DNA of 64,000 nt from Deltaproteobacteria bacterium. Lineage in GTDB: Bacteria > CG2-30-53-67. The stretch is from the NCBI GenBank assembly GCA_013151235.1, contig JAADIO010000016.1, positions 1 to 64,000 on the forward strand. Direction: 5' to 3'. The translations under genes were made by a program, and so were the position numbers. The notes beneath the pieces are model-generated. The model was not told the DNA's origin, made no database searches, and saw only the letters and a list, made by a program, of their open reading frames with translations. This document shows, piece after piece, positions 10,170 to 46,494 of this stretch (positions are counted from its first letter, which is position 1; each line of letters begins with the position of its first letter).

Positions 10170-10188
10170 CCGAGTCGAAAGCAAGAAG

Positions 10189-19754: not shown

Positions 19755-22556
19755 ATGGATTACAAAGATACTCTGAACCTCCCCTCCACAACCTTTCCCA
19801 TGAAGGCGAACCTGACCCGGCGCGAACCGGAACTTCTCCGCCGATGGGAGGAGATGGATCTCCACGGAAAGATCCTGGAAAAAAACAACGGAAAACCGGT
19901 CTTCACCCTTCACGACGGCCCCCCTTACGCCAACGGCAATATCCATATCGGCCATGCCCTGAACAAGATTCTCAAGGACATCATCATCAAGTACAAGAGC
20001 ATGAAAGGGTACTATGCCGAATATGTTCCCGGCTGGGACTGCCATGGTCTTCCGATCGAACTGCAGGTCGATAAGAAACTCGGATCGAAAAAGAAGGCGA
20101 TGACCCAGGTCGAGTTCCGGCGCAAGTGCCGGGAGTATGCCGACCGTTTCGTCGGAATCCAGCGGGAGGAGTTCAGGCGGTTGGGAGGCATCGGGGCGTG
20201 GGATACTCCCTATCTGACCATGGACTACCGCTACGAGGGGGCGATCATACGGGAGTTCGGCCGGTTCGTTGAACAGGGAGGGGTCTACAAAGGGAAGAAA
20301 CCGATTCACTGGTGCGCCTCCTGCCGGACGGCCCTGGCCGAGGCCGAGGTGGAGTACGCCGACGAGGAGTCTCCCTCCGTTTATGTCCGGTTTCCTCTGG
20401 AAGAGACGGTGGGTGAGCGGATTCCGGCCTTGAGCGGGAAAAAGGTCTTCGTCGTCATCTGGACGACCACCCCCTGGACCCTCCCGGCCAATCTGGCCGT
20501 CTGCCTCCATCCCGATTTCACCTATGTTGCCGTGGAGACGGAGAAGGGTGTGCTGATCGTTGCGAAAGAGCGCCTGAAGGTCTGCATGGAAAGCTTCGGG
20601 ATTGAAGAATGCCCGGTCCTTGCAACCTTTGCCGGGCGTGATCTCGAAGGCTTGCTCGCCCGGCACCCCTTTGAAGAGCGGGATTCCCTCCTCATCGTCG
20701 GAGATCACGTGACCCTGGAACAGGGAACCGGCTGTGTTCACACGGCACCGGGCCACGGCGAGGATGATTACAAGATCGGGATGCGATACGATCTTGACGT
20801 CTATACCCCGGTCGATGACCGGGGCTGTTTCACCGACGAGGCCGGCCCCTTTGCGGGGCAGTTCGTCTTTAAGGCGAACGGCCCGATCACGGAACTTCTG
20901 GCCGAAAGAGGTCATCTCCTGGCCTCGGAGAAGGTGGAACACTCCTATCCTCACTGCTGGAGGTGTAAAAAGCCGATCATTTTCCGGGCCACGGCCCAAT
21001 GGTTCATCTCCATGGAGGCCAACGATCTTCGAAAACGGACCCTCGATACGATTCGCAATAAGGTCGACTGGATCCCGGCCTGGGGAGAAAACCGGATCTA
21101 TGCCATGGTGGAGAACCGGCCCGACTGGTGTATCTCCCGGCAGCGGAGCTGGGGGGTTCCCATTGCCGTCTTCCAGTGCAGTGCCTGCGGGGAGTATCTC
21201 CTCGATGCCTCCGTGATATACCACGTGGCGGGCCTCGTTGAGAAGGAGGGGGCCGATATCTGGTTCGACCGGGAGGCGAAGGATCTCATGCCGGCCGGGA
21301 CGGTCTGCCCCAAGTGCGGTGAGGACGATTTTGAAAGGGAGCAGGATATTCTCGACGTCTGGTTCGACTCCGGCGTCAGCCATACCGCCGTGATCGGCGC
21401 GCGGGAGGGGCTTTCCTATCCCGCAGATCTCTACCTTGAGGGGAGCGACCAGCACCGGGGGTGGTTTCACAGCGCCCTCCTGACAGCTCTCGGCACCGGG
21501 AAGGAAGAACCGTTCCGCGCCGTTCTGACCCACGGCTTCGTGGTCGACGGCAACGGCAAGAAGATGTCCAAGTCGGTCGGCAACGTGATCGCCCCGAAGA
21601 GCGTGATTCAGCAGAATGGTGCCGAGATCCTGCGGCTCTGGGTTGCCGCCGAGGACTACCGGGACGATATCAAGATCTCTTCGGAGATCTTAAAAAGAAT
21701 GGTCGAGGCCTACCGGAAGATCCGGAACACGGCCCGCTTCATCCTGGGGAACTTAAGCGACTTTGATCCCGAAGTCGATGCCGTATCCATAGAAAATATG
21801 CCCGAACTCGACCGATGGGCCCTTCATCAACTGAACCGGCTGATCGAACGGGTGGACAACGCCTACGGGCGCTACGCCTTTCACACGATCTACCATACCC
21901 TGTACAACTTCTGTACCGTGGAGCTTTCCGCCCGGTATCTGGATATCCTCAAGGATCGGCTCTATGTTCTGAAGGCCGATGCCCCGGGGCGTCGCGCCTC
22001 CCAGACGGTTCTCTGCCGGATCATCACGACCCTCACCCGCCTGATGGCGCCGATCCTGAGTTTTACCGCCGAGGAGATCTGGGGAATGATTCCGGGAGGA
22101 TCGGGGGAGGAATCCGTCTTTTTGAGTGATTTCCCCGCGGCCGACCCCGCTGCCTGCGATGATGAACTGGCCGCCCGCTGGGAGGAGATCTTCACCGTCC
22201 GGGGAGAGGTTTCCCGGGCACTCGAAGAGGCGAGGCGGGCCAAGGTGGTGGGACTCTCCCTCGAAGCGGCTGTCGATCTCTATCTTGCGGAAAAATGGAG
22301 GGATCGGCTCGCCCCTTATGAGGCACAGCTCCCGGAGATTATGATTGTCTCCGCCGTTACGCTCCATTCCCTGACGGAGACCGCCGCCGAGGCACAGCCC
22401 GAAGGGGAAGTCGCTGGAGTGAGGGTCCGGGTACGGCCTGCGGAAGGTGAGAAGTGCGGACGATGCTGGAACTTCAGTTCCACCGTGGGGGAAGATCCCG
22501 GTCATCCCGATGTCTGCCGTCGATGTGCAGGAGTTCTGCGGGAATTGGGGGGTTAA
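19755..22556 (+). CDS. ileS: Isoleucine--tRNA ligase
   Basis: HIGH and KMSKS motifs, WTTTPWTLPAN, C-terminal zinc finger. Confidence 0.98.
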   Translation: MDYKDTLNLPSTTFPMKANLTRREPELLRRWEEMDLHGKILEKNNGKPVFTLHDGPPYANGNIHIGHALNKILKDIIIKYKSMKGYYAEYVPGWDCHGLPIELQVDKKLGSKKKAMTQVEFRRKCREYADRFVGIQREEFRRLGGIGAWDTPYLTMDYRYEGAIIREFGRFVEQGGVYKGKKPIHWCASCRTALAEAEVEYADEESPSVYVRFPLEETVGERIPALSGKKVFVVIWTTTPWTLPANLAVCLHPDFTYVAVETEKGVLIVAKERLKVCMESFGIEECPVLATFAGRDLEGLLARHPFEERDSLLIVGDHVTLEQGTGCVHTAPGHGEDDYKIGMRYDLDVYTPVDDRGCFTDEAGPFAGQFVFKANGPITELLAERGHLLASEKVEHSYPHCWRCKKPIIFRATAQWFISMEANDLRKRTLDTIRNKVDWIPAWGENRIYAMVENRPDWCISRQRSWGVPIAVFQCSACGEYLLDASVIYHVAGLVEKEGADIWFDREAKDLMPAGTVCPKCGEDDFEREQDILDVWFDSGVSHTAVIGAREGLSYPADLYLEGSDQHRGWFHSALLTALGTGKEEPFRAVLTHGFVVDGNGKKMSKSVGNVIAPKSVIQQNGAEILRLWVAAEDYRDDIKISSEILKRMVEAYRKIRNTARFILGNLSDFDPEVDAVSIENMPELDRWALHQLNRLIERVDNAYGRYAFHTIYHTLYNFCTVELSARYLDILKDRLYVLKADAPGRRASQTVLCRIITTLTRLMAPILSFTAEEIWGMIPGGSGEESVFLSDFPAADPAACDDELAARWEEIFTVRGEVSRALEEARRAKVVGLSLEAAVDLYLAEKWRDRLAPYEAQLPEIMIVSAVTLHSLTETAAEAQPEGEVAGVRVRVRPAEGEKCGRCWNFSSTVGEDPGHPDVCRRCAGVLRELGG

Positions 22557-22646
22557 AAACTCTACATACTTACGTATCCCCCCTTGCTCCTCTCTTGCAA
22601 GTGGGGGTAAGATCATCCATCAAATATTTCAGGCAAAGCGCATTCT

Positions 22647-23150
22647 ATGACCGACTCCCTTAGACGACTCCTCCTCATCGCCCCCCTGACGGTCCTTGTC
22701 GATCAGACAAGCAAACATCTCGTCATGACGGGCATGCGCCTCGGTCAGTCGATTCCCCTCCTCAAGGGGTATCTGAGGTTGACCTATATCCGCAATCCCG
22801 GCGCCGCCTTCGGATTTCTCTCCACCTCGTCGGAGGCCTTCCGGGTTCCATTTTTCCTCGGCATCTCCTTTCTGGCCATCACCGTCGTATTGATTTTCTA
22901 CCTGCGAAGCGCACAGGGGAATACGCTGCTCCAGGTCGGACTCTCCCTCGTTCTGGGCGGGGCCGTGGGAAACCTGATCGACCGCTTCCGTTTTCACGAG
23001 GTCGTCGACTTCATTGATCTTTATTTTCGGCAATACCACTGGCCGGCCTTCAACGTGGCCGACTCCGCCATCAGCGTCGGGGTGACAATCCTCCTGATCG
23101 ATGCAGTCCTCACCGGCCGGATGGAAAAACAGAACCCGGAGGGTACCTGA
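22647..23150 (+). CDS. lspA: Lipoprotein signal peptidase
   Basis: DQTSK, NPGAAFG, GNLIDR, VVDF, FNVAD. Confidence 0.97.
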   Translation: MTDSLRRLLLIAPLTVLVDQTSKHLVMTGMRLGQSIPLLKGYLRLTYIRNPGAAFGFLSTSSEAFRVPFFLGISFLAITVVLIFYLRSAQGNTLLQVGLSLVLGGAVGNLIDRFRFHEVVDFIDLYFRQYHWPAFNVADSAISVGVTILLIDAVLTGRMEKQNPEGT

Positions 23151-23938
23151 TGCATCCTGTCCTTGTCAGTTTCGGTCCTTTCACCCTCCATACCTATGGA
23201 CTGTTCGTGGCCTCCGCCTTCTTCGCCGCCATTTTCCTCAGCCTTCACGGAGCACGGAAAGAGGGGATCGACCCCGACCGGATGCTCGATTTTGCCTTCT
23301 ACGTGACACTCGCGGCGATCCTCGGCGCCAGGATCCTTTTCATCATCGTTGAATATCCATACTTCCTGGCGGACCCGATCCGAATCTTCAAGATCTGGGA
23401 AGGCGGGCTCGTTTTCTACGGCGGTTTCATCGGGGCGGTGATTGTTGCGATCCTCTACATGAAAAGACATGACATGCCGATCCTCACGGTCGGAGACATC
23501 GTGGCGCCCGCCCTCGCCCTCGGTCAGGCGGTCGGACGAATCGGGTGCCTCTCCGCCGGTTGCTGCTACGGCAAGCCGACCTTGCTTCCCTGGGGAATCA
23601 CCTTCACCGATCCCCGTTCTTTGGTCTCTCCCGACAAACTCGGCATCCCGCTCCACCCCACGCAGCTCTACTCCTCCCTCGGCAACCTCACCCTCTTCTT
23701 TTTCCTCCTTTTCATGAGCCGGAGGAAGAAATTTTCCGGCCAGATCCTTCTTCTCTACGGGATCTGCTATCCCCTTCTCCGCTCCTTCATTGAGATCTTC
23801 CGGGGCGACCCGCGGGGGAGCCTTTTCGGGGGAATGCTCTCTACTTCGCAGTTTATAAGCGTCATCGTCTTTTTGATCGCTCTGACCTTCTATTTCAAGC
23901 TGAGGAAGGGGCATCAGGTGTCAGGCCTTGACAAATGA
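23150..23938 (+). CDS. lgt: Prolipoprotein diacylglyceryl transferase
   Basis: GARILF, WEGGLVFYGG, GRIGC...GCCYG, HPTQLY, EIFRGD. Confidence 0.95.
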   Translation: MHPVLVSFGPFTLHTYGLFVASAFFAAIFLSLHGARKEGIDPDRMLDFAFYVTLAAILGARILFIIVEYPYFLADPIRIFKIWEGGLVFYGGFIGAVIVAILYMKRHDMPILTVGDIVAPALALGQAVGRIGCLSAGCCYGKPTLLPWGITFTDPRSLVSPDKLGIPLHPTQLYSSLGNLTLFFFLLFMSRRKKFSGQILLLYGICYPLLRSFIEIFRGDPRGSLFGGMLSTSQFISVIVFLIALTFYFKLRKGHQVSGLDK

Positions 23939-23947
23939 TATAATTTG
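23917..23947 (+). repeat. REP-like palindrome associated with the RAYT gene (copy overlapping lgt stop)
   Basis: GGTGTCAGGCCTTGACAAATGATATAATTTG, 30/31 identical to the reverse complement of 25613-25643. Confidence 0.85.
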
Positions 23948-23962
23948 TTTGAAAAAGAGATG

Positions 23963-24000
23963 GAACGGAATCCGGAAAACGACTTTTTGCGACTTCATCA
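23963..24000 (+). repeat. Right-end fragment of palindromic element family C
   Basis: GAACGGAATCCGGAAAACGACTTTTTGCGACTTCATCA nearly identical to 46368-46405. Confidence 0.75.
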
Positions 24001-24020
24001 AGGTTCGCTATGTGTCATTG

Positions 24021-24326
24021 TCAGGCACTCTTCTCCAGAACTCTGACCTCCTTCTCAAACTTCTTACCTCTCTTGTCTTTCTCGACTTCAATATCATACT
24101 GTGTCTGGAGGTTCAGTCAGAACCGTTCGGACAGGCCGAAATATCTGGACAACCGGAGATCTGTATCTGTGGAAACGGCTCTCTTGCCGTGAACGATCTC
24201 ATTGATTCTGCGCGGGGGTACACTGATATCCTTCGCCAGACGGTACTGGCTGATACCCATCGGTTTCAGGAATTCTTCAAGTAAAATTTCTCCCGGATGG
24301 ATCGGTTCCAGTTTTTTCCTGCTCAT
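24021..24326 (-). pseudogene. higA: HigA-family antitoxin with internal stop codon
   Basis: IHPGEILLEEFL...RINEIVHGKR...SERF*LNLQTQYDIEVEK: TGA at the Trp of the usual FWLNLQ motif; frame continues to 24021. Confidence 0.85.
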
Positions 24327-24335
24327 GACTCTCTC

Positions 24336-24500
24336 CTAATGATAGTCCGTTATTTCCATATCGTAGGCGTCGCCATTATGCCATCGAAAGCATATTCTCC
24401 ACTGGACATTGATCCGGATACTGCAACACACTTTTCTGTCCCCCGATAGCCGTTCCAAATGATTCCCCCGCGGGACCCTCAAATCCTCCAACCTCTCCGC
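24336..24500 (-). pseudogene. higB: HigB/RelE-like toxin, 5'-truncated relic
   Basis: LEDLRVPRGNHLERLSGDR...SIRINVQWRICFRW...EITDYH; N-terminus replaced by a REP-like copy. Confidence 0.8.
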
Positions 24501-24513
24501 CGTATCATTAGTG

Positions 24514-24534
24514 TCATTTGTCAAGGTCCTGTCC
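24514..24534 (-). repeat. Degenerate REP-like palindrome copy
   Basis: Minus strand GGACAGGACCTTGACAAATGA. Confidence 0.65.
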
Positions 24535-24596
24535 GGCTCGGCACCGGTCGTGTGCCACGATCGGGAAAGAGGGAGAACAAATTTATCGTGACCCAT

Positions 24597-24630
24597 CACA
24601 TCAAATGGTGTCACACATCAAATGGTGTCA
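24597..24630 (+). repeat. Tandem duplication, 2 x 17 bp
   Basis: (CACATCAAATGGTGTCA)2; the last GGTGTCA is the start of the REP-like repeat. Confidence 0.9.
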
Positions 24631-25643
24631 GGCCCTGACAAATGATATAAGCTCCCCGAGCTTTTTGGCTAATTTCTGGTTCCGTTCCATTTCTTTTTCA
24701 AACCTCGACACATTGTGACTGACGGCTGTAGGATGGATCCCCCCAAAAAGGTCGGCAATCTCCTGATTGGGCAGACCACAATATTTTTTGACCAGATAGA
24801 TTGCAACCTTACGGGGAAGATTATTGCGCCCTCCTCTCTGTTCCAGTGAGTTTCTGGAAATACCAAAGAAAGATGAGACAAGCTTCAAGATCTCATCAGC
24901 CTGCGGGGCGGTTCGAAACCGTTTCCGTTCGATAATATCGTGGTCAAATTCTTTGCCGGCAAGGGTCTTCTTCGCCTTCTCGACAAACGCTTCACCCCCC
25001 AGGATCACTTGCCCAAACAGACCGTCAAAAGGATCTTGCCCCATCGTGCACTGTGCTGTTTTCACAAAGGAACGATACGCTCTTCCGGCCTCATTTTCTT
25101 TTGAACTGAAGCGGGACAGGATCCAGCTATACTCCACCCATAAAAACCTTTTCTGCTTATTGACAAATCCCGGATAACTGCTCCACTGATATTCCGATAC
25201 CTCCTTCACGATCCCTGCACGAACAGGATTCAGGTGGACGTATCGACTCAGTTCCAGGAGATAGCTTTCTTTCTCCACAAGGATCGCTTTGTATCTTCCC
25301 TGAAACAGATGGCCGCTGCGATTATATTTTCGATTGACGTATCCGGTATACCGGCTGTTCAGGCCGTGCATCACTTTGAGGAGATTTCCCTGTGGTGTCT
25401 CTATGATCAGATGATAGTGGTTCGACATCAGGACATAGCTGTGGATCAGTATACTGTATCGGTGATGATACTCTTCCAGAAAAGAGAGGAACATTTCCCG
25501 GTCGGAATCCTTGAAGAAAATCTCTTTCTTCTCATTTCCACGGCTGGTCACATGGTACAAGGCACCTGGATATTCGATACGGAGTGGACGTCCCATGAAA
25601 TTAATATACCCGCAAATTATGTCATTTGTCAAGGCCTGACACC
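24624..25643. mobile_element. RAYT-like unit bounded by inverted REP-like repeats
   Basis: GGTGTCAGGCCYTGACAAATGAYATAA at both ends in inverted orientation around the transposase. Confidence 0.75.
24628..25596 (-). CDS. REP-associated tyrosine transposase (Y1 HUH) with C-terminal DnaA_C-like HTH
   Basis: MGRPLRIEYPGALYHVTSRGN, LMSNHYHL (HUH), GHLFQGRY, YVHLNPVRAG, YQWSSY; C-terminal RKVAIYL...EIADLFGG. Confidence 0.92.
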   Translation of the reverse strand: MGRPLRIEYPGALYHVTSRGNEKKEIFFKDSDREMFLSFLEEYHHRYSILIHSYVLMSNHYHLIIETPQGNLLKVMHGLNSRYTGYVNRKYNRSGHLFQGRYKAILVEKESYLLELSRYVHLNPVRAGIVKEVSEYQWSSYPGFVNKQKRFLWVEYSWILSRFSSKENEAGRAYRSFVKTAQCTMGQDPFDGLFGQVILGGEAFVEKAKKTLAGKEFDHDIIERKRFRTAPQADEILKLVSSFFGISRNSLEQRGGRNNLPRKVAIYLVKKYCGLPNQEIADLFGGIHPTAVSHNVSRFEKEMERNQKLAKKLGELISFVRA

Positions 25644-25684
25644 CAAGCTTTGTGACACCCAAGCTTTGTGACACCCAAGCTTTG
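25637..25684 (+). repeat. Tandem repeat, 3 x 16 bp
   Basis: (TGACACCCAAGCTTTG)3, perfect; TGACACC is the REP terminus. Confidence 0.95.
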
Positions 25685-25965
25685 CAAATGCGATGGGGAT
25701 TGTAAATCTAATTCTTTGGAGTGGCGGATAATTTGACCGGGAGATCGACGTGCAACGCGGAAGAGGGTCCGGAAGTCAGAAAGTTTTTCTCCATCTGTGC
25801 AAACTTTTGCCTAATAGTGGAAATAGTTTTCACAATAATGGTAAATTTTTTCCACTTTTCAAAACACATCGTTGTCGCAAGCCTGGGACACAAAGAGAAG
25901 ATTCACAAAAAACACCCATCTTTTCATGTGGTTAAAGCGACGATCATTCAAGATCGACTCTATAA

Positions 25966-25981
25966 TGGTATAAAAATTGCA
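25966..25981 (+). promoter_or_regulatory. Sigma-54 (-24/-12) promoter upstream of PEP-CTERM genes
   Basis: TGGTATAAAAATTGCA, GG-N10-GC spacing. Confidence 0.65.
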
Positions 25982-26131
25982 TTATAGTCAACTTGTAAAC
26001 TTTCCCATTCGCTCATTACTTTCGAATGATGCATCTACTTTTTTTGCTAACTTTGAGCTGGATTTTTGCTCCATGTATCATACACTGTTAACTCTCTGTT
26101 TCTTCATATAACGCAGGCAACTCGACCTTTT

Positions 26132-26215
26132 GTGCCTATTCGGCTTTCTCCTGCTGGGCTCCGGCCTCTTCCGGCTGTCCGCCTGCAGGCGCAACTGTTT
26201 CCGGAAGCTCAATAA
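26132..26215 (+). pseudogene. Relic PEP-CTERM/VPLPA-like sorting-signal fragment
   Basis: GTGCCTATT (VPI), then shifted frame GFLLLGSGLFRLSACRR; no upstream ORF. Confidence 0.45.
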
Positions 26216-26256
26216 GACCCACCACAAAACTACTCGCTGTTTGGGAGGGTGAATCA

Positions 26257-26880
26257 ATGGATCGACACAACATCTTCTTTTATGTTCTGGTCTTTTTTTG
26301 TATCTCCGTTATGCCTGCTCATGCAACACTGATCGATATCGGAGGCGGCCTGATCTATGATGACGTCCTCGACGTCACATGGCTTCAGGACGCAAACTAT
26401 GCAAAAACATCCGGGTATAACGCAGACGGCCTGATGACCTGGTCGGAAGCCCAGGCCTGGGCCGGGGGGTTGTCTTATTATGACTCGGTCCGGGATGTTG
26501 TGTTGGATGACTGGATACTTCCGACTACACCGGGAACAATTAACGGACCTCTGAACGAAGGTGATTTGGGCCATCTCTACTTTGAGGAGGGAGTCACACC
26601 TGCAACACCAGGACCATTTGTCAACTTGCAGGCCGGCAAATACTGGACGGACACTCCCTATTCCCTAGACCCGAACAAGGCATGGGGATTCGATTTTGTC
26701 GTCGGTGGGCCCTGTGTAAGCGCTATAGACGAAAGAACGTCCATCATGCCTTACCGTCCTCGTAAGCCGCCTTTTCATGGTCCCATCACTCCGGAACCCT
26801 CATCATTCATCCTGATCGGAACGGGACTGTCCGGATTACTCGTCTTGACAAAAGGGAAAGCAAAACACCACAAACCATAA
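26257..26880 (+). CDS. PEP-CTERM sorting domain protein (DUF1566/Lcl-like body)
   Basis: Signal peptide AHA, LIYDDVLDVTWLQDANYA, C-terminal TPEPSSFILIGTGLSGLLVLTKGK. Confidence 0.9.
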   Translation: MDRHNIFFYVLVFFCISVMPAHATLIDIGGGLIYDDVLDVTWLQDANYAKTSGYNADGLMTWSEAQAWAGGLSYYDSVRDVVLDDWILPTTPGTINGPLNEGDLGHLYFEEGVTPATPGPFVNLQAGKYWTDTPYSLDPNKAWGFDFVVGGPCVSAIDERTSIMPYRPRKPPFHGPITPEPSSFILIGTGLSGLLVLTKGKAKHHKP

Positions 26881-26928
26881 CCATATTCCAATCCCAAGCC
26901 TGACTTGAAAATCGGTGGAGAGAAAAAA

Positions 26929-27648
26929 ATGATGAAGAGAATCCATCCGTTGGAATTTAATGATATCGAATTCATAAAACAACAGAACAGGTTCCATCTT
27001 TTTTATATCCCGATGATTATTGTGCTGACCATTTATTCATCGAATTCTTTTGCAACGCCCATCGATCCGCCTCCTCATTTGAAAATTATGAATGACAGCC
27101 CAGGATTCTTTGAAGCAGAAATAGACGGAATGATGTCAGGTGCTACGTGGTCCTCGCAAGGTCCATCAACTCAAAACGGCAACATTACCATTTCTGTTTG
27201 GGAATATCTTATACCTGTGGTGGGAGTCAAGTGGCATGCTTGGGGCCAGTTGGAGAAAGTTATATATCGGGATATGTCGGATAGTAATGCTTATCCTGAA
27301 TTCACTTATAATCTGTTTCTCTATGGAAGGCATATGGTTGCGCTTCACAACAATGAAACTGCACCGAACACGAATATATTAGCAACCTATTTTCTAAACT
27401 TAAGAGGAATTTCAAGCAGTCCCTCATTACAAAAAGACAAAGATAGCGTGTTGCACCCTCACATTCCACATAACGACTCAATGCAATTAACTGTTTACGA
27501 TATGGACGATGAAAGCCCAAGTTATCTTTGGCCGGACGGATCAATTTTCAGTGTCGTAAAAATGTATCACACTCCGGAACCATGTTCCATTCTACTTTTT
27601 GGTTCTGGAATTTCTATTTTATTTAGGTTTGTCAGAAAGAAAGGCTGA
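26929..27648 (+). CDS. PEP-CTERM sorting domain protein, low GC
   Basis: SFA-TPI signal cleavage site, C-terminal TPEPCSILLFGSGISILFRFVRKKG; start uncertain. Confidence 0.85.
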   Translation: MMKRIHPLEFNDIEFIKQQNRFHLFYIPMIIVLTIYSSNSFATPIDPPPHLKIMNDSPGFFEAEIDGMMSGATWSSQGPSTQNGNITISVWEYLIPVVGVKWHAWGQLEKVIYRDMSDSNAYPEFTYNLFLYGRHMVALHNNETAPNTNILATYFLNLRGISSSPSLQKDKDSVLHPHIPHNDSMQLTVYDMDDESPSYLWPDGSIFSVVKMYHTPEPCSILLFGSGISILFRFVRKKG

Positions 27649-27798
27649 TAGCGCATCTTCCGCAGTTCAAAATGCAAATTATCCGTATGGTTAGAATTCT
27701 AAATCGTAATGTTTTGATGTTTCTTCGTGAACTTGGCGATCTTGGCGAGAACGGAGCAAATCTTCGGTAAACCGCTCGGGCTCGCAGTCAGCATACCC

Positions 27799-29592
27799 TC
27801 ACAACCCCATCCCCATCTCGATATAGCCGCAGGGGCAGGTATACGAACAGATATGACAGCCGTTGCAACGGGTGTAGTCGGTAAACATCACCTGTCCCAT
27901 GGGCCGGGAGAAATCGTGACGGATGGCATGGCGGGGGCAATAGATCCGGCACTGACCGCAGCTCATGCAGAGCCCGCAGCTCATGCAACGTCCGGCCTCG
28001 GCCACGGCGTCCTCCGGAGCCAATGTCCCGAAGATCTCCTGGAAGCCGTTGACCCGGTCGGAAACGTTTTGTGCCGGCGGCTCGTGACGCGGGGCATCGG
28101 GATAGTAATCGAGGCGAAGATCTCTTTCCCGGATGGGCCGCACCTTCGGCAGGGGACGGTACTCCCGGCCATGAAGATAGGCATCGATCGCCAGGGCCGC
28201 TTTCCGCCCTTCCCCCACGGAACGGGTGGAGATCCCCAGACCGAGGACATCGCCGCCGGCAAAGACCCCTTCGACATTCGTCTCTCCGTTCTTCCGGACC
28301 TCTCCCCAGCCCCATTCGTTTGCCAGTCCCTTCATGTCCCCGGCAAAATCGGGAAGTTGACCGATCCCGGAGATCACGGCCGTGGCCTCGATAAAGAACT
28401 CCGATCCTTCCACGGGCAGGGGGCGCCGCCGGCCGGATGAATCGGGCTCGCCCAATTCCATACGGATGCATCGGACCCCGGCCACACGGTGATTCTTCAC
28501 TTCAATTTCAACGGGAGCGGCCAGAAATTCGATCCGCACCCCTTCCTTTTCCGCCGCAACGATCTCTTCTTCGATGGCCGGCATCTCGGCACCGGTACGC
28601 CGGTAGAGGATCGTCACCTCGGCGCCGCCTTGCCGTCTCGAGACGCGGGCCGAATCGAGCACACTCTGGGCCGATTCGGTATCAAACTGTTCCTCCTCAC
28701 CGGAATCCTTGTGCGCCATCCGGAGGGAGACGTCGATGGCGCTGTTTCCGCCACCGATGACGACCACCTTGTTTCCAAGGTCGATCTCGACTCCCGAATT
28801 GATCCGGTTGAGGTAGTCGGCCGCGGCAAAGACATGGGAGGCATCCTCGCCGGGGATATTGAGCGCCACGCCCCGATGGGCGCCGATCGCCACATAGAGG
28901 GCATCGTATTCACTGCGAAGCTCCCGGAAAGGGAGGTCGACGCCGACCTTGACGTTGGAGCGGAGATTGACCCCCAGGTCGAGAATTTTCCGGATCTCGC
29001 CGTCGAGGACCTCCTCCGGGAGCCGGTAGGAGGGGACGCCGTAACGGAGCATTCCGCCCGGTTTTTCATAGGCATCAAAGAGGGTGACGGGGTAGCCGCG
29101 CCGGACCAGTTGGTAGGCGCAGGAAAGTCCCGAGGGCCCGGCGCCGATCACGGCCACGCTCTGCGGTTTCACTTCCTCCGTCAGTTTCCGTAACGGAAGT
29201 CCCCGTGCGAGGCCGTGGTCCCCGACCGCACGTTCAAAGGCGTTGATCGCCACGGCGCCGTCGGCCTTGTGCTGCCGGTTGCACCCCTTTTCACAGGGAT
29301 GGGGGCAGATCCGTCCATGTACGGCGGGCAGGGGATTCTTGTCCGTCAGTATGTACCAGGCCTCATCCAGGGCCTCATCGACGGGTTTTTTTTGATATTC
29401 CGCACGTGCCACCACGGTAAGATACCCCCGGATATCTTCACTGCTCGGGCATTCCGCCCGGCAGGGGGGCAGTTTCCGTACATAGACGGGGCACTTCCAG
29501 CTTTCACCGCTGGTGACCACCATCTCCGAGGGGGAGGCCTTTTTGTTTTGAATGATTTCAAGGTCCCGGCAAAAAACAGATTCTGCGCCCAT
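27799..29592 (-). CDS. dsrL: Iron-sulfur flavoprotein DsrL (NAD(P)H:acceptor oxidoreductase)
   Basis: KCPVYV..LPPCRAECPSSEDIRG, GRICPHPCE..CNR, GAGPSG, GGGNSAID, YRR, C-terminal CMSCGLC..CP and CNGCHIC..CPCGYIEMG; directly follows dsrB. Confidence 0.9.
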   Translation of the reverse strand: MGAESVFCRDLEIIQNKKASPSEMVVTSGESWKCPVYVRKLPPCRAECPSSEDIRGYLTVVARAEYQKKPVDEALDEAWYILTDKNPLPAVHGRICPHPCEKGCNRQHKADGAVAINAFERAVGDHGLARGLPLRKLTEEVKPQSVAVIGAGPSGLSCAYQLVRRGYPVTLFDAYEKPGGMLRYGVPSYRLPEEVLDGEIRKILDLGVNLRSNVKVGVDLPFRELRSEYDALYVAIGAHRGVALNIPGEDASHVFAAADYLNRINSGVEIDLGNKVVVIGGGNSAIDVSLRMAHKDSGEEEQFDTESAQSVLDSARVSRRQGGAEVTILYRRTGAEMPAIEEEIVAAEKEGVRIEFLAAPVEIEVKNHRVAGVRCIRMELGEPDSSGRRRPLPVEGSEFFIEATAVISGIGQLPDFAGDMKGLANEWGWGEVRKNGETNVEGVFAGGDVLGLGISTRSVGEGRKAALAIDAYLHGREYRPLPKVRPIRERDLRLDYYPDAPRHEPPAQNVSDRVNGFQEIFGTLAPEDAVAEAGRCMSCGLCMSCGQCRIYCPRHAIRHDFSRPMGQVMFTDYTRCNGCHICSYTCPCGYIEMGMGL

Positions 29593-29605
29593 GGTCATTC
29601 CCCTC

Positions 29606-30682
29606 CTATAAGCGGACCTGCGAGGACGTGTTGAAGGTCGTCCGGGCAAAGCGGTAATTATCGATATGGTACTTGGTGAAGGGAAAACCGGTAACCTCGA
29701 AGAACCGCTTCCAGCCGACCCGGTCGATCCACTCGCCGACCCGCTCGTAGGGCTTCGCACCCGCCTTGTAGGCATCGAGGATCCTGCAGACCGCCTCGCT
29801 CACCTCCGGCCACCGGGGGGGATTGTTGGGGAGCCCGTAGGTGGCGAGTTTCATGAAGGAAGGTCCGCTCCGGGTACTCGCCGACTTGCCGCCGACCCAG
29901 ATCGAGAGCGTATCGGCCTCGGCATCACGGATCTCCATGCTCGGACACTGTCCGTGACAGGCCCCGCAGTACATGCACTTCTCTTCGATCACCTCCAGGG
30001 AGTCCCGGCCTTCCACCCTGCGCGGCCGGACCGCCGCAACGGGGCAGATCGCCACCACCTTGGGAAGCTCACAGATCTGCATCTTTCCGTGATCGATCTT
30101 CGGCGGTTTGTGGTGCTGCAGATTGATGGCGATATCCGACTGCCCGCCGCAGTTGATCTGGCAGCAGGAGGTGGAGATCTTGACGCGTTGGGGCAGGCGC
30201 TCGTTCACGAAGTCCTCATAGAGGGTATCCATGAGTGCCTTGACGGCGCCGGCCGCATCGGTTCCGGGGAGGTTGCAGTGCAGCCATCCCTGGGTATGGA
30301 TCACATTGGAGATGGACGGTCCGGTCCCCCCCACGGGGAAACCGAGAATGTCGCGGACCTCCCGGATCAGGGGATCGATATCCTCCTCGCGGGCCAGGAG
30401 AAACTCGATGTTGCACCGGCTGGTGAAGCGCAGATGCCCCTGGCAGTATTTGTCCGCAATCGTACAGATCTTCCGGACCGTATCCACACTCATGGTTCGG
30501 GGGGATCCCGCCCGGACCGTGTAGAGGGCATCCCCGCTTTCCGCCACATGGACCAGCACACCGGGGCGGAGACGCTCATGATACTTCCACTTGCCGTAGT
30601 TTTTGGCCATGAGGGGATGGAGAAACTTCTTGAACTCGGGCGCCCCGTTATCCCGGGGTGCCGTCTTTTTTGTGGTGGTCAT
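29606..30682 (-). CDS. dsrB: Dissimilatory sulfite reductase beta subunit, oxidative-type signature
   Basis: NYGKWKYHE..RPGVLVHVAESG, HTQGWLHC, TSCCQINCGGQSDIAIN, LPNNPPRWPE, FPFTKYHID. Confidence 0.95.
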   Translation of the reverse strand: MTTTKKTAPRDNGAPEFKKFLHPLMAKNYGKWKYHERLRPGVLVHVAESGDALYTVRAGSPRTMSVDTVRKICTIADKYCQGHLRFTSRCNIEFLLAREEDIDPLIREVRDILGFPVGGTGPSISNVIHTQGWLHCNLPGTDAAGAVKALMDTLYEDFVNERLPQRVKISTSCCQINCGGQSDIAINLQHHKPPKIDHGKMQICELPKVVAICPVAAVRPRRVEGRDSLEVIEEKCMYCGACHGQCPSMEIRDAEADTLSIWVGGKSASTRSGPSFMKLATYGLPNNPPRWPEVSEAVCRILDAYKAGAKPYERVGEWIDRVGWKRFFEVTGFPFTKYHIDNYRFARTTFNTSSQVRL

Positions 30683-30698
30683 CGTTGATCCTCCCGCG

Positions 30699-31976
30699 CT
30701 ATGAGATGGTCTCTTCGCCGTCCGGCTCCTTGTTCAAAACAGACGGGGCCTTTTTTTCCTCTCCCGCCATCCTCGGCCGCGTGTACTCTTCGAATTTGAT
30801 ATAAGGGTTGCTGCGCGGCTGATTGACCATCTGCGGATCCGGTTCCAGGCCGATGCCGTCGAGGAAGGTCCCCAGTCCGACCCGGTCGATGAATTCGCCG
30901 ACCCGTTCGTGTTCCATCCCATGCTCCCCCCAGAAGTCCCAGATTCTCCGGACGAGGTCGGTCAGTCTTTCCCAATCCTCCTCGCTCTCCATCTTCATGA
31001 AGGGGACCAGCACCGAACTCATGGTATCCCCGATCTTCAGGCTGCGCTTGCCGCCGATCAGGATCGTCACCCCCCGGTCACGTCCGATCGACAGGGCCCT
31101 GTGCATCACGTTGATACAGTGCATGCAATGGACACAGTTGTCGTCGTCGATTATGATTTTCCGGTCCTTCAGGGTCATACATTGGGTGGGACAGCGTGCA
31201 ATCACCGTATTCATCACCGAGCGTTCTCCCCGCTCGTCAATAAACCTGGCGACCTCTTCCTGGTCCACCTGGATGCCGTCGCGCCAGGTCCCGATGATCG
31301 GCATGTCGGAGCGCTGCATGGAACAGGCACAGTCGTTGGCGCAGCCGGAGAGCTTGAACTTGTACTTGTAGGGGAATTCGGGACGATGAAGTTCGCTGAT
31401 AAAGGTATCGGTAATGTACTTGGTCAGACCGAGGGTATCAAAGCAGGACATCTCGCACCGGGCGGGTCCGACGCAGCAGGCGAGCGTCCGCATGGCCGCG
31501 CCCGAACCGCCGAGGTCCCAGCCCTTCTCCATGAGTTCCTCGCCTGCTTCAAAGGTCTGCTCATTGTCGGAACCAAGCATCAGGATGTCACCGGTCATGC
31601 CGTGGAACTGGAGGATCCCGGCGCTGTGTTTCTCGCTGATATCGCAGAGTTCCCGAAGGGCCGCAGTCGAATAGACCCAGGCCGAAGGTTCAAGAATCCG
31701 GATCGTGTTGAACCGGGCCATGGCCGGGAACTTGTCCACCACGTCCGAGTATCGGCCGATCACCCCGCCGCCGTATCCGTCGAGATTGATCACCGTCCCG
31801 AGCCAGTGATCGGTGCGCGTCTCGTAGGACTCTTCCAGTTGCCCCAGAAGCTGTTTCACGGCCGGCTTCTTTTCGGACAAGTCCTTCAGGTCCGTCACGA
31901 AACTCGGCCACGGGCCTTTTTCCAATTCGTCCAGCAAAGGCGTTTGGATCTCTTCGGGCTCTTTTGTGTCAGACAT
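30699..31976 (-). CDS. dsrA: Dissimilatory sulfite reductase alpha subunit
   Basis: TPLLDELEKGPWPSFV, GYGGGVIGRY, siroheme-[4Fe-4S] CVGPARC and GCANDC, YKFK, CVHCMHCIN, PRSNPY. Confidence 0.95.
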   Translation of the reverse strand: MSDTKEPEEIQTPLLDELEKGPWPSFVTDLKDLSEKKPAVKQLLGQLEESYETRTDHWLGTVINLDGYGGGVIGRYSDVVDKFPAMARFNTIRILEPSAWVYSTAALRELCDISEKHSAGILQFHGMTGDILMLGSDNEQTFEAGEELMEKGWDLGGSGAAMRTLACCVGPARCEMSCFDTLGLTKYITDTFISELHRPEFPYKYKFKLSGCANDCACSMQRSDMPIIGTWRDGIQVDQEEVARFIDERGERSVMNTVIARCPTQCMTLKDRKIIIDDDNCVHCMHCINVMHRALSIGRDRGVTILIGGKRSLKIGDTMSSVLVPFMKMESEEDWERLTDLVRRIWDFWGEHGMEHERVGEFIDRVGLGTFLDGIGLEPDPQMVNQPRSNPYIKFEEYTRPRMAGEEKKAPSVLNKEPDGEETIS

Positions 31977-32118
31977 CACTCACCCCTTCCTTCTTTCCGG
32001 AACCGCTTCACGGATGTGATTTGCATCGCCGGCAAACAAAACTGCGGATCATGGTTTCTCAATCAATAGAAATAGACCAGCATTCATTCAAACATTACTA
32101 TATCTCAATATATTTTAT

Positions 32119-32134
32119 TGTGACGCATATCACA
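32119..32134. promoter_or_regulatory. CRP/FNR-family binding box upstream of dsrA
   Basis: TGTGA-CGCATA-TCACA, perfect TGTGA-N6-TCACA in AT-rich intergenic DNA. Confidence 0.65.
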
Positions 32135-32227
32135 TAAAAAACAATTTCCGCTCATGCCCCAATAATAAGCGATTTAAGCGTTCAAGACTGCATTTTTATG
32201 AGCAAAAGGAAAAACATAAAAGCGCCA

Positions 32228-34060
32228 CTACTCCACCGTGACGCTTTTGGCCAGATTCCTCGGCTGATCGACGTCGGTCCCGCGCAGTACGGCGATGTGG
32301 TAGGCGAGGAGCTGGAGGGGGATGGTCATCAGGATCGGAGAGAGGAAGTTATTCGTTGAAGGGACCCGGAGGGTATGGTCGGCTTTCCCCTCCACTTCCG
32401 GTTCCTTCTGATTCACAAGGGCGATGACGATCCCGGAGCGTGCCTTGACCTCTTCGATGTTGCCTCGGGCTTTTTCAAAGACGCCGTCATGGGGAAGAAG
32501 GGCAACAACGGGCATCTTTTCATCGATGAGAGCGATGGGGCCGTGTTTCATCTCGCCGGCGGGGTAGCCCTCGGCATGGATGTAGGAGATCTCTTTTAAC
32601 TTCAGCGCCCCTTCGAGGGCGATGGGATAGTGAATACCGCGCCCCAAGTAGAGAAAGTCGGTCCGGTCGGCATAGAGCTTCGCCAGCTTCCGGATCGTCT
32701 CTTCCTCTTCGAGGATCTTTTCCACCTGCTGGGGGAGTCTGGCCAGGTCTTCCATTAGGGGAACGGCCTGTTCTTCCGGCATCCCGCCCCGTGCCCGGGC
32801 GAAATAGAGGGCAAAAAGATAGAGCGCAACAAGCTGGGTGGTGAAGGCCTTGGTTGATGCGACACCGATTTCCGGGCCGGCGTGGGTGTAGATCACGCCG
32901 TCGGCCTCCCGGGTGATGGAGCTTCCCAGGACGTTACAGATTCCGACGGTTTTGGCCCCTTTCCCCTTCGCCTCACGCAGCGCTGCCAGGGTGTCGGCGG
33001 TCTCACCCGACTGGGAAATGCAGATCAGGAGGGTTCTCTCATCCACAATCGGATCCCGGTAACGGAATTCCGATGCGATGTCAACTTCCACGGGGGTCCG
33101 GCTCATCTCCTCGATCATGAACTTCCCCACGAGGGCGGCATGGTAGGAGGTGCCGCAGGCGATCATGATGATTTTGTCGATGTCTTTGGCCCCGGCCGGA
33201 GTGAGTTCGAACTGTTCGAAGAAGACCTCCCCCGTTTCCCGGGAGATCCGTCCCCGGAAAGTGTCGAGAATCGCCCGGGGCTGTTCGAAGATCTCTTTCT
33301 GCATGAAGTGTTTGTAGCCCCCTTTTTCCGCCATGACGGCGCTCCAGCGGATTTGCTGAACCTCTTTGGTGACGGGGGTGCCGTCAAGTTTTGTGACGGT
33401 GACCCCTTCACGGCTGAGCAGGGCCATCTCCCCGTCGTCGAGGAAGATCACCTTCCGGGTATGGTTCAGGATGGCCGGGATGTCGGAGGCGAGGAAGTTT
33501 TCTCCCTGACCGAGCCCAAGGACGAGGGGGCTTGCCTTCTTGGCGGCGATGATCCGGTCCGGTTCGTTGCGGTTCATAATCCCCAGGGCGAAGGCTCCTT
33601 CCACCTGCTGCAGGGCTGTCCTCACGGCCTCCACGAGGTCGCCGGTCCCCTCCTTTCGGTATTTCTCGATGAGATGGGCGATGACCTCCGTGTCGGTCTC
33701 CGAGGTAAATACATATCCTTCTTTGGTCAGCGCCCGTTTCAGCTCCAGATAGTTTTCGATGATGCCGTTGTGGACAATGACGGTGTCGCCCGAGCGGTGG
33801 GGGTGGGCGTTCTCCTCGGAGGGTTTTCCGTGGGTGGCCCAACGGGTGTGTCCGATGCCGATGCCGTCTGCGGTGCTGTTCCCCCGGGTACAGGCTTCGA
33901 GATTCCGGATCTTGCCTTCACACCGGTGAATCCTGATCTCGTTGTTCTTGAGATAGGCGATTCCCGCCGAGTCGTAGCCGCGGTACTCCAACCGTTTCAA
34001 TCCGTCGATTACAACGGGTAGGACGTCCTGGCTGCCGATGTAGCCGACGATGCCGCACAT
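32228..34060 (-). CDS. glmS: Glutamine--fructose-6-phosphate aminotransferase
   Basis: [34 protein letters not shown]. Confidence 0.98.
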
Positions 34061-40534: not shown

Positions 40535-42430
40535 ATGAAAAACCCTTTCTACCTGACGACACCGATCTACTATGTCAATGATGTTCCCCATATCGGCCAT
40601 GCCTATACCACGACAGCGACCGATGCCCTGGCCCGGTACCGGAGGATGATGGGGGATTCGGTCTTCTTCCTGACCGGCACCGATGAACACGGGCAGAAAG
40701 TGGAAAAGAGCGCCGCCCTCCAGGGGATCTCCCCGAAGGAGTTGGCCGACCGGGTGGTGGGACGATACCGGACGCTCTGGCGGGAGATGACCATTTCCAA
40801 CGATGATTTCATACGGACCACCGAGGCCCGGCACAGGGAGGCCGTGCAGTCCCTCTGGAAGACCGTCGAAGAAAAGGGGGACATCTATCTCGGGGAATAC
40901 GAGGATTGGTACTGCACCCCCTGCGAGACCTTCCTGACGGACCACCAATTAGTGAACGGGGCCTGCCCGGATTGCGGACGTGTTCCCGAACGGCTCCGCG
41001 AGGAGAGCTATTTCTTCCGGATGTCCCGCTACGGCGACCGGCTCCTCGATTTTTATGAGAAACATCCCGACTTTGTCCGGCCGGAATCCCGCCGGAATGA
41101 AATCGTTCAGTTCATCCGGGGAGGGCTTCGCGACCTGAGCATCAGCCGTACCACCTTCTCCTGGGGGATCCCCGTGCCGGGCAACCCGAGGCATGTGATC
41201 TACGTCTGGTTCGATGCCCTGACAAACTACCTGTCGGCCTTGGGGTTCCCGTCGGATCGGGAACGTTTCGAGACCTACTGGCCGGCGAAGGTCCATGTGA
41301 TCGGCAAGGATATCCTGCGGTTTCATGCCGTCTACTGGCCGACCTTTCTCATGGCGGCGGGACTGCCTCTGCCGGAGCAGGTTTTCAGTCACGGCTGGTG
41401 GACGGTGGACGGGGAGAAGATGTCGAAATCGAAGGGGAACGTCGTCGATCCGGGGAAGATGGTCGAGCGGTACGGCGCCGATCCCTTCCGCTACTTTCTG
41501 CTCCGGGAGGTCCCTTTCGGTCTGGACGGTGACTTTTCGGAGAAGGCCCTGGTGGGACGGTTTAATTCCGACCTGGCCAACGACCTGGGGAATCTTTTCT
41601 CCCGGGTGACGACCATGCTCGGCAAGTACTGCGGCGGGAAGGCGGTACGGACCGGCGGAGGCGGGGAACTGCGGGAGAGGGCCGAAGCGGTCCTGGCCGC
41701 GGTGGACGGTCACATGGAAAAACTCGCCTTTCACCTGGCGCTCCAGGAGATCTGGGGGCTGATCAATGCCGCCAACCGCTATGTCGACCGGAAGGCGCCC
41801 TGGACCCTCGCCGGGGATCCCGGCCGTCATGACGAGCTGAATGCCGTCATGTATCATCTCATCGAGACGCTTCGGCTGGTGACCCTGCTGATCTCTCCCT
41901 TCATGCCGGCGACGGCGAAGAAATGCGCCCTGCTCTTCGGGATGACGGAGAAGGATTTCCGGAAGGAGAACCTGGTCTGGGGGAAGACCTCCGATGGGCT
42001 TTCCGTCTCCAGGGCGGAACCGCTCTTTCCCCGGCGGGAGAGGAAACCCGATGTTGCCGTGCCGAAGAAGAAGGAGGTCAAAGCGGAGAAAGAGAGAAAA
42101 AAAGAGCTTCTTACCCTCAAAGAGTTTGCCTGCCTTGATCTTCGTTCCGGGGTGATCCGGGAGGCCGGGCCGGTGCCGGAATCGGACCGGCTCCTCCTGC
42201 TGAAGGTCGATACGGGGGAGACCGATCCCCGCCAGGTGGTGGCCGGGATTGCGGAAAGATACCGGCCCGCCGATCTGATCGGCCGGGAGGTGGTGGTCGT
42301 CTGCAATCTCAAGCCGGCGAAGATTCGGGGGGTGGAGTCCCGGGGAATGATCCTGGCCGTGGAGGGCAAGGATGGACTTGTCCTGGTCGGTTTTGATGAG
42401 AATGTCGGACCGGGGAGGAAGGTGCGGTAA
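40535..42430 (+). CDS. metG: Methionine--tRNA ligase with C-terminal tRNA-binding domain
   Basis: TTPIYYVND.PHIGHAY, YVWFDAL, KMSKS, NLKPAKIRG.ES.GM. Confidence 0.97.
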   Translation: MKNPFYLTTPIYYVNDVPHIGHAYTTTATDALARYRRMMGDSVFFLTGTDEHGQKVEKSAALQGISPKELADRVVGRYRTLWREMTISNDDFIRTTEARHREAVQSLWKTVEEKGDIYLGEYEDWYCTPCETFLTDHQLVNGACPDCGRVPERLREESYFFRMSRYGDRLLDFYEKHPDFVRPESRRNEIVQFIRGGLRDLSISRTTFSWGIPVPGNPRHVIYVWFDALTNYLSALGFPSDRERFETYWPAKVHVIGKDILRFHAVYWPTFLMAAGLPLPEQVFSHGWWTVDGEKMSKSKGNVVDPGKMVERYGADPFRYFLLREVPFGLDGDFSEKALVGRFNSDLANDLGNLFSRVTTMLGKYCGGKAVRTGGGGELRERAEAVLAAVDGHMEKLAFHLALQEIWGLINAANRYVDRKAPWTLAGDPGRHDELNAVMYHLIETLRLVTLLISPFMPATAKKCALLFGMTEKDFRKENLVWGKTSDGLSVSRAEPLFPRRERKPDVAVPKKKEVKAEKERKKELLTLKEFACLDLRSGVIREAGPVPESDRLLLLKVDTGETDPRQVVAGIAERYRPADLIGREVVVVCNLKPAKIRGVESRGMILAVEGKDGLVLVGFDENVGPGRKVR

Positions 42431-42488
42431 TGAAAAGCTGTTCAAACCGTTCAAAAAGTTTCAACCGTTTAAGCGGCAAGGTTGTATC

Positions 42489-46172: not shown

Positions 46173-46176
46173 TTTT

Positions 46177-46405
46177 TGATGGTGTCGTAAAAAGTCACGA
46201 AGCCCTTCGACCCTTCGGCCGGCTCAGGAGAGCCTTGCTCAGGGCGAATGGTGTAAGTTATTGATATTCCGTTCTTGTGGTTCGGCAAGCTTCCGAGCAT
46301 GGTGAGCTTGCCGAACCACATGCTCGGAAAGTTTAATGGACCGTTCGTGGTGAGACTGTCGAACCATGAACGGAATCCGGAAAACGACTTTTTACGACTT
46401 TATCA
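46177..46405. repeat. Composite palindromic element family C
   Basis: TGATGGTGTCGTAAAAAGTC...GACTTTTTACGACTTTATCA ends with nested REP-like hairpins. Confidence 0.8.
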
Positions 46406-46494
46406 TTTTTAATCCACGGGTATTTTTCATTGAGTTGTAGCCTTGAATCCAATATAATAATATAGTTGCATCGTTTCAAATTCAGTGAGAAGCC

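Follow-up and report, generated by a model that had tools for sequence, protein, structure and literature searches.

The dsrABL Locus

The dsr genes considered here lie on contig JAADIO010000016.1, of whose 100,552 base pairs (bp) a stretch of 64 kilobases (kb) was analyzed; this stretch is referred to as the window, and all searches for absent genes cover these 64 kb. Positions 27799-31976 hold an intact three-gene operon, dsrA-dsrB-dsrL, which probably specifies an oxidative-type (reverse) DsrAB together with an electron-transferring flavoprotein of the DsrL-2 type (Table 1). The three genes are arranged head to tail with gaps of 16 nucleotides (nt) between dsrA and dsrB and 13 nt between dsrB and dsrL, the latter containing GAGGGG, and a dsrD gene would therefore not fit between dsrB and dsrL. 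Whole-protein scores are well above the curated equivalog cut-offs of NCBIfam for all three products: 483.8 bits against 392.85 for DsrA (TIGR02064), 473.1 against 341.5 for DsrB (TIGR02066), and 579.8 against 516 for DsrL (NF009410), which also carries the Pfam domains Fer4_20 and Pyr_redox_2. The tight packing that had been read from the sequence alone, with no room for dsrD, is thus borne out.

The gene boundaries are consistent with those of related proteins. Read from its ATG, the DsrA of 425 amino acids (aa) matches an entry of the protein collection exactly; a longer dsrL frame opening at 29775 would overlap dsrB, and the starts of relatives align with 29592. By eye, residues 12-409 of DsrA align to A. 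fulgidus DsrA (3mm5_A) with the CCxxxxxC, CxxxC, and CxxCxxC motifs kept, and HC, CCxxxC, and CxxCxxCxxxCP are conserved between DsrB and its counterparts from D. vulgaris (2v4j_B) and A. fulgidus (3mm5_B). A consensus scan of the spacer upstream of dsrA returned a single sigma-70-like site, and dsrABL probably has a promoter of its own within these 251 nt. No intrinsic terminator was found on the minus strand after dsrL, and neither Rfam at gathering thresholds nor ARAGORN gave a match in the window.

Table 1. Coordinates of the dsrABL operon and of other features of the window
Feature	Position	Strand	Remarks
dsrA	30699-31976	minus	425 aa from ATG; in-frame GTG one codon upstream at 31979
dsrB	29606-30682	minus	358 aa; SCCQINCGGQ--SD form
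dsrL	27799-29592	minus	597 aa; predicted DsrL-2 iron-sulfur flavoprotein, NAD(P)H:acceptor oxidoreductase
Acidic insert in DsrL	28610-28740		residues ~289-325
Site of missing SAR in DsrL	28720-28740		residues ~287-288
Spacer, glmS stop to dsrA start	31977-32227	minus	251 nt, AT-rich; sigma-70-like site; GGAAGGGG ribosome-binding stretch
Sigma-70-like site	32124-32097		within the spacer
glmS	32228-34060	minus	upstream of dsrA; then glmU, DUF502 gene, and PEP-CTERM gene further out
ileS, lspA, lgt	19755-23938		housekeeping; dsrL side
Two open reading frames	26905-27648; 26257-26880	plus	convergent to dsrL; C-termini with PEP, hydrophobic stretch, basic residues
Low-GC island	23900-27700		3.8 kb, between lgt and dsrL
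118-aa open reading frame	within 23900-27700		low-GC island
HigB-like toxin gene	24336-24614	minus	low-GC island
Transposase gene	24628-25674	minus	low-GC island; REP-associated (repetitive extragenic palindromic) tyrosine transposase fused to DnaA C-terminal helix-turn-helix domain
Palindromic element	23917-23947; 24624-24650; 25613-25643 (inverted)		27-31 nt, partly palindromic, three copies
Tandem repeats	25637-25684; 24597-24630		perfect 16 nt, three copies; 17 nt, two copies
TatD/radical SAM frame	42372-43865		497 aa; overlaps metG end by 59 nt
Putative export gene run	44139-54423		see text

Relatives and Gene Order

Relatives were taken from a scan of species-representative genomes as the best 80 of 588 confirmed matches, and closer representatives are possible. 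Gene order was scored by tblastn mapping of Dsr proteins together with hand-picked open reading frames (ORFs) on the relatives' loci, for 82 DsrA copies including the window and the second set of a Thermoleophilia metagenome-assembled genome (MAG), L007. The canonical order dsrAB-dsrEFH-C-MK-L-JOP occurs in 37 of these copies, all but two of them proteobacterial by record name and none from another named phylum. Fifteen copies have dsrAB followed by an ORF of 72-81 aa and then dsrL, fifteen have dsrA, dsrB, and dsrL in direct succession, and two have dsrC after dsrAB; the next gene was not scorable in the remaining 13, mostly at contig ends. DsrA matches to the window descend from 97% identity, first through proteins of Nitrospirae/Nitrospirota MAGs and then through Nitrospinae, Thermoleophilia/Gaiellales, and Magnetococcales. 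The clade to which the window belongs (the window clade) consists of the window, L001-L014, and L025, MAGs of Nitrospirota, Nitrospinota, Thermoleophilia, and Magnetococcales; L004 and L009 are placed in it by DsrA, their contigs stopping in or just past dsrB. In every other clade locus with a scorable next gene (13/13), dsrL comes immediately after dsrB, and the direct succession that the sequence-only reading had regarded as an unusual minimal layout is in fact the rule.

What lies beyond dsrABL varies within the clade. In the nearest locus, L001 (DsrA 79% identical to the window), cytochrome, CBS, and HPP genes come first and then a DsrT-like gene, dsrM, K, C, and E; in L002 a DsrT-like gene and dsrMKJOP follow at once, in L005 and L006 dsrC, M, and K, and in L007 dsrEFH. 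L012 has only dsrC, upstream, and L011 has dsrEFH, J, and O on the opposite strand, some 8 kb upstream; in the Magnetococcales loci L010 and L014, dsrABL stands alone across 4-7 kb to each side. Altogether dsrEFH, dsrC, or dsrMK adjoin dsrABL in L001, L002, L004, L005, L006, and L007. The genes between dsrL and dsrM in L001 (14232-17661) are multihaem cytochrome-like, CBS-pair, and HPP-family membrane genes, and dsrM is preceded in both L001 and L002 (L002 4557-5102) by a 180-aa gene that is DsrT-like by position and has a Pfam RsbRD_N match. L007 carries two Dsr sets in tandem on one strand at 1-12660, in the order dsrK, a weak dsrJ-like match, dsrA, dsrB, 81-aa ORF, dsrL, dsrA, dsrB, dsrL, dsrEFH; its two DsrAB pairs belong to different clades, an arrangement that resembles the literature account of Gaiellales SURF_19.

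The 72-81-aa ORF at the dsrD position is conserved in all 15 loci that have it (e.g., L023 12353-12589, L007 4192-4437). Pfam DsrD matches one of the 15 members, at E 0.0096, and a profile search of PDB sequences with this ORF returned weak matches to winged-helix domains and no DsrD. Given that its identity as DsrD is unconfirmed, these loci are termed small-ORF-linked here, the name dsrD being that of the literature; if the ORF does encode DsrD, it would be a divergent form.

Affiliation of DsrA and DsrB

Trees were built by careful searches for DsrA (67 rows, with seven distant DsrA-like cluster representatives as outgroup) and for DsrB (55 rows), the reductive side being made up of the 15 small-ORF-linked loci and cluster representatives. 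In the DsrA tree, the window groups with L001 (99/95) inside the 16-row window clade (100/99), and that clade joins 26 canonical oxidative rows (99/94), the 18 reductive-side rows lying separately. The DsrB tree likewise contains the split that unites the window clade with the canonical rows (98/99), and the approximately unbiased (AU) test of DsrB rejects a grouping of the window clade with the small-ORF-linked group (p 0.00485). A two-residue deletion in DsrB, giving SCCxINCxxx--xD, provides an independent character that agrees with the best trees: it is present in 14/14 window-clade and 48/48 canonical rows and in 0/15 small-ORF-linked rows, which instead read ACC[LIA]NMCGAVH[CA]SD, as do D. 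vulgaris 2v4j_B and A. fulgidus 3mm5_B. This signature comes from the present alignments and from a motif given in the sequence-only reading, and is not a published definition. Further, L002 and L008 are classed as oxidative-type rDsrA by Löffler et al. (2020; PMC7596348, which, like the other papers cited here, is drawn on through excerpts). These comparisons put DsrAB of the window either on a deep offshoot of the oxidative-type lineage or next to that lineage, and certainly outside the reductive-side group represented in the trees.

An oxidative-type lineage had already been proposed from three DsrB motifs, and the best DsrA and DsrB trees together with the deletion favor that proposal, while the AU tests of DsrA reject neither alternative. 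The motifs themselves fared unevenly. All three are present, and SCCxINC..--xD alone separates the groups cleanly; HTQGWLHC is one residue away from reductive forms (L versus V/I), and FTKYHID is found exactly in 7/15 small-ORF-linked rows and is not diagnostic.

The DsrL Protein

The type of DsrL had been overlooked in the sequence-only reading, and it is not the DsrL-1 of classical sulfur oxidizers. In a quick tree of 57 out of 59 DsrL rows (two truncated ones omitted), the window pairs with L001 (100) within a 13-row clade (99), which is sister to the 15 small-ORF-linked DsrL in a joint 28-row DsrL-2 branch (100); the 28 canonical rows and L047 lie on the opposite side of the tree (100). 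The window protein has YRR at residues 330-332, in the reading ILYRRTG, and two CxxCxxCxxxCP motifs at its C-terminus. In the same alignment column, YRR is found in 13/13 members of the window clade, 15/15 small-ORF-linked, and 4/28 canonical DsrL, and in 0/1 of the remaining group. Because of this motif and its position in the tree, the window protein is assigned to DsrL-2, and use of NADP(H) is predicted, the YRR motif having been tied to NADP(H) specificity by Löffler et al. (2020; PMC7596348). DsrL-2A/2B following oxidative dsrAB has been proposed as an indicator of oxidation, and a DsrL subcluster has been linked to Magnetococcia, Nitrospinota, and Nitrospirota 9FT-COMBO-42-15 (Diao et al., 2023; PMC10591310, in excerpt). 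The 13-row clade comprises exactly the DsrL-2A/2B taxa, and the order dsrAB-dsrL is confirmed in it.

In DsrL of the window, a 27-residue acidic insert, shared with L001, separates the GxGxxA motif from the YRR strand. It measures about 38 aa in the Nitrospinota loci L005 and L006 and about 52 aa in Magnetococcales and Gammaproteobacteria, and is absent from L002, L003, and L007; DsrL-1A has an insert of about 32 residues at the same site.

Absence of Partner Genes

Partner genes were sought in all six frames of the window, with 21 accessory sequences of related loci serving as tblastn queries (DsrC, E, F, H, M, K, J, O, P, a DsrT-like protein, a cytochrome, and the small ORF of the dsrD position). 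No other dsr gene was detectable: the sole match below E 0.1 was that of the ferredoxin part of DsrO to the C-terminus of DsrL itself (E 2.6e-4), the next best match had an E value of 0.16, and the small ORF (L007 query) gave at best E 2.3. The earlier statement that no dsrD, dsrC, dsrEFH, or dsrMKJOP stands beside the cassette therefore holds for the whole of the window.

The cassette has the composition of its surroundings. GC content at third codon positions (GC3) is 0.73-0.81 for dsrA, dsrB, and dsrL, compared with 0.77 for glmS and 0.79 for metG. A recent foreign origin from a compositionally different donor was considered and dropped because GC3 and codon usage match those of the neighboring genes.

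Proposed Function and Alternatives

What is found, then, is a YRR-type DsrL encoded together with this lineage of reductase, with no dsrD and with native codon usage. On balance, dsrABL is probably an operon for an oxidative-type rDsrAB and its dedicated DsrL-2, serving sulfur oxidation with transfer of electrons to NADP+; the catalytic direction and NADP specificity are deduced, as is the presence of partner genes elsewhere. The working of such an rDsrABL-2 system can be sketched from characterized relatives. Sulfur would be carried as a persulfide or trisulfide by DsrC, which, like DsrEFH and DsrMK(JOP), would be encoded beyond the window. At its siroheme-[4Fe-4S] site, rDsrAB would oxidize the sulfur delivered by DsrC to sulfite, and the electrons would leave through the iron-sulfur clusters and FAD of DsrL-2 to NADP+.

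Several results weigh against this assignment or loosen it. The reductive side of the trees contained no named classical DsrAB from Desulfobacterota, Bacillota, or archaea. The AU test of DsrB does not reject a grouping of canonical with small-ORF-linked rows that leaves the window clade outside both (p 0.172), and that of DsrA rejects neither the window clade (p 0.371) nor the canonical rows (p 0.28) as partner of the reductive-side group; DsrA alone thus leaves the sister group of the window clade unfixed. In a tree rooted by the DsrA/DsrB paralogy, the root is placed within the window clade for DsrA and in the other group for DsrB, so that the clade may predate the split between canonical and small-ORF-linked enzymes; this rooting was not relied upon, the two halves having given different roots across a branch of 2.59. 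The lack of dsrC, dsrEFH, and dsrMK within the window leaves the cassette without its oxidative partners there. Finally, the DsrL helix that follows GGGNSAID is three residues (SAR) shorter than in 6/6 aligned relatives, one of them 96% identical to the window protein; the loss is either a real in-frame deletion of 9 nt or an assembly slip.

The likeliest alternative, although itself somewhat short of an even chance, is that the genome contains two Dsr sets, the triad being one of them, with a reductive dsrAB-dsrD-dsrL and a shared dsrTMKJOP-C-EFH elsewhere and expression switching the direction of metabolism. This would agree with an oxidative role for the present copy and would alter the lifestyle attributed to the organism. 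Two sets have been described for Nitrospirae bacterium CG2_30_53_67 (GTDB CG2-30-53-67) in the excerpted accounts of PMC7596348, PMC10591310, and PMC11406059. DsrA of the window is 86.1% identical to P0003 and DsrB 91.3% to P0543, cluster proteins with four NCBI accessions whose names begin "Nitrospirae bacterium," both kinds of Dsr set stand in tandem in the Thermoleophilia locus L007, and an IleRS without a named relative above 61% fits a little-sampled lineage. However, the window bears no sign of a second Dsr set, the derivation of P0003 and P0543 from CG2_30_53_67 is tentative, resting on truncated names and accession prefixes, and other clade members, 9FT-COMBO-42-15 and Magnetococcia, are described in the passages available with an oxidative set only.

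It is unlikely that the module works reductively in vivo, with DsrL-2 oxidizing NADPH and DsrAB reducing sulfite in respiration, detoxification, or disproportionation. Such a role has some basis, given that YRR predicts NADP(H), that DsrL-2 of Desulfurella amilsii accepts NADP(H) alone, that sulfite reduction requires NADPH as donor, and that rDsrABL-2 could in principle reduce sulfite (PMC7596348, in excerpt); likewise, DsrA leaves the sister relation to canonical oxidative enzymes unsecured. Opposed to it are the missing dsrD (a 13-nt gap, and a negative tblastn with the small ORF across the 64 kb), the deletion and tree position that put DsrB on the side of the oxidizers, and the dsrEFH genes encoded by clade relatives. 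Further, the cultured FCR-1, which has the same gene set, oxidizes sulfide and by the portion of PMC11950176 consulted shows no sulfate reduction. A silent or decaying cassette that no longer has any function is very improbable. Its isolation from every partner gene, the unique three-residue deletion in the dinucleotide-binding helix of DsrL, and the adjoining low-GC island with its REP-associated transposase and HigB toxin gene might suggest decay, but all three frames are open, their products score past the cut-offs with cysteine ligands kept, and codon usage is native. Moreover, identity to a relative is 96-97% for the three Dsr proteins and only 87% for IleRS, the opposite of what relaxed selection would leave. 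An oxidative rDsrAB served by DsrL-2 remains the preferred interpretation of the operon.

Comparison with Published Systems

The closest published parallel is Nitrospirae bacterium CG2_30_53_67, for which Löffler et al. (2020; PMC7596348) report rdsrABL-2 and, elsewhere, reductive dsrABDL-2 and dsrTMKJOPCEFH, suggesting that one Dsr set serves oxidation and the other reduction; Diao et al. (2023; PMC10591310) repeat this account, and Klier et al. (2024; PMC11406059) count CG2-30-53-67 among "transitionary phyla," each paper being cited from the sections available. The likeness lies in an oxidative-type dsrAB followed directly by DsrL-2 and not joined to dsrTMKJOPCEFH; in addition, the nearest named DsrA (86%) and DsrB (91%) bear "Nitrospirae bacterium" names, which does not imply identity of lineage. 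Neither a reductive dsrABDL-2 nor dsrTMKJOPCEFH is present in the 64 kb of the window.

Among the other systems, L001 and L002 resemble the window in DsrA (76-79% identity), DsrB (80-86%), membership of the same DsrAB and DsrL-2 clades, direct dsrB-dsrL succession, and YRR; unlike the window, which has no partner within 27.8 kb on one side and 32 kb on the other, they have DsrT-like, dsrMK(JOP), dsrC, and dsrE genes within the next 0.2-7 kb. Magnetococcia provide the split arrangement itself. The cultured magnetotactic coccus FCR-1, which oxidizes sulfide, stores sulfur, and according to the excerpted paper does not reduce sulfate, has dsrABL, dsrMK, and dsrJOP at three separate loci (PMC11950176), and "Ca. 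Magnetaquicoccus inordinatus" UR-1 is described, also in excerpt, with two copies of dsrABL apart from dsrC and dsrFEHJOP. Thus dsrABL forms in both FCR-1 and UR-1 a unit apart from dsrMK, dsrJOP, dsrC, and dsrEFH, although Magnetococcia differ from the window in DsrA (only 61-64% identical), in a DsrL insert of about 52 aa, and in host phylum. Desulfocapsaceae MAGs likewise have oxidative dsrAB-dsrL-2 on separate contigs, outside their other dsr operons (Diao et al., 2023; PMC10591310, in part).

The canonical cluster dsrABEFHCMKLJOP(NRS) of the A. vinosum type shares with the window the lineage given by the best trees, the DsrB deletion, and a DsrL partner. It differs in having dsrEFH after dsrB and dsrL between dsrK and dsrJ, compared with A-B-L only in the window, and in a DsrL of type 1A (24/28 without YRR); its DsrA is 46-55% identical to that of the window. 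The small-ORF-linked loci, dsrAB-ORF-dsrL-2...dsrC-dsrT-dsrMKJOP, which number 15 and come from Acidobacteriota, Planctomycetota, Gemmatimonadota, and others, are alike in having a YRR-bearing DsrL-2 close after dsrAB, and unlike in the 72-81-aa ORF between dsrB and dsrL, in a DsrB of the form ACCLNMCGAVH[CA]SD, and in separate DsrAB and DsrL clades.

These reports show that the split rdsrABL-2 layout has been published before, as have its probable significance and the hypothesis of switching. Since relatives are routinely described with dsrABL split from their other dsr genes, in the published passages at hand, the notion of an unusual minimal module falls. What stands is the other part of the sequence-only reading, that the cassette relies on partners elsewhere or is a second, switchable set, and this is the published view: no partners are present in the 64 kb, separate loci are on record for relatives, and a switchable second set is the proposal of Löffler et al. 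(2020) and Diao et al. (2023) for CG2_30_53_67, as given in their excerpts. Organisms with rDsrAB and DsrL-2 stand at the disputed border between sulfur-oxidizing and sulfite-reducing Dsr metabolism. With its contig of 100 kb, the window adds one more example, from a lineage that has been little sampled, of a catalytic triad separated from its partner genes. The general picture is unchanged by it, and dsrABL lends itself well to tests of sulfur oxidation linked to NADP.

Possible Exchange of the Triad

DsrA, DsrB, and DsrL are 96.7, 97.2, and 96.2% identical to proteins that are each on a JGI contig of 75,158 bp, and IleRS is 87.1% identical to a protein on a 75,158-bp contig, presumably one and the same contig for all four. 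Further relatives of the window IleRS stand at 79 and 73-70%, followed by a Nitrospirota MAG at 61% and by Geobacter, Desulfacinum, and Nitrospinae at about 60%. The 90% clusters of LspA, Lgt, the DUF502 protein, GuaA, and GlmS contain the window protein alone; those of DsrA, DsrB, and DsrL have 24, 28, and 4 members. The gap in identity between the Dsr proteins and the flanking ones may stem from strong constraint on the former or from the cassette having been exchanged recently. That dsrABL is an exchangeable three-gene module swapped among related lineages by recombination is a speculative extension and an improbable one. If true, it would amount to a plug-in oxidative or reversible branch with which a resident core of DsrC and DsrMK could be equipped, and would help to explain the patchy distribution of rDsrABL-2 in Nitrospirota, Nitrospinota, Actinomycetota, Magnetococcia, and Desulfocapsaceae.

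Genomic Surroundings

The dsrABL genes are set among housekeeping genes, with ileS-lspA-lgt on one side and glmU-glmS on the other. The flanks had been given earlier as glmS and a PEP-CTERM gene; the former is correct, and the latter is a reading from motifs that passes no hidden Markov model. Of the two frames convergent to dsrL, the Pfam PEP-CTERM model matches only that at 26257-26880, weakly (E 0.0022, below the cut-off).

Between lgt and dsrL lies an island with a GC content of 0.46 and GC3 of 0.39-0.58, as against a window median of 0.68, which holds the HigB-like toxin and transposase genes. The partly palindromic element repeated around these two genes resembles the REP sequences acted on by such transposases, and tandem repeats of 16 and 17 nt occur beside them. 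Further away, a 497-aa ORF joins TatD-type DNase and radical SAM domains and may be a fusion or a start-site artefact. The run of genes at 44139-54423 encodes a PocR-domain histidine kinase, a GNVR chain-length protein, an AAA_22 ATPase, a DUF4388 response regulator, a T2SSE ATPase, and a ParA-like ATPase; it is typical of an exopolysaccharide or PEP-CTERM export system and fits the three PEP-CTERM-type proteins encoded closer to dsr.

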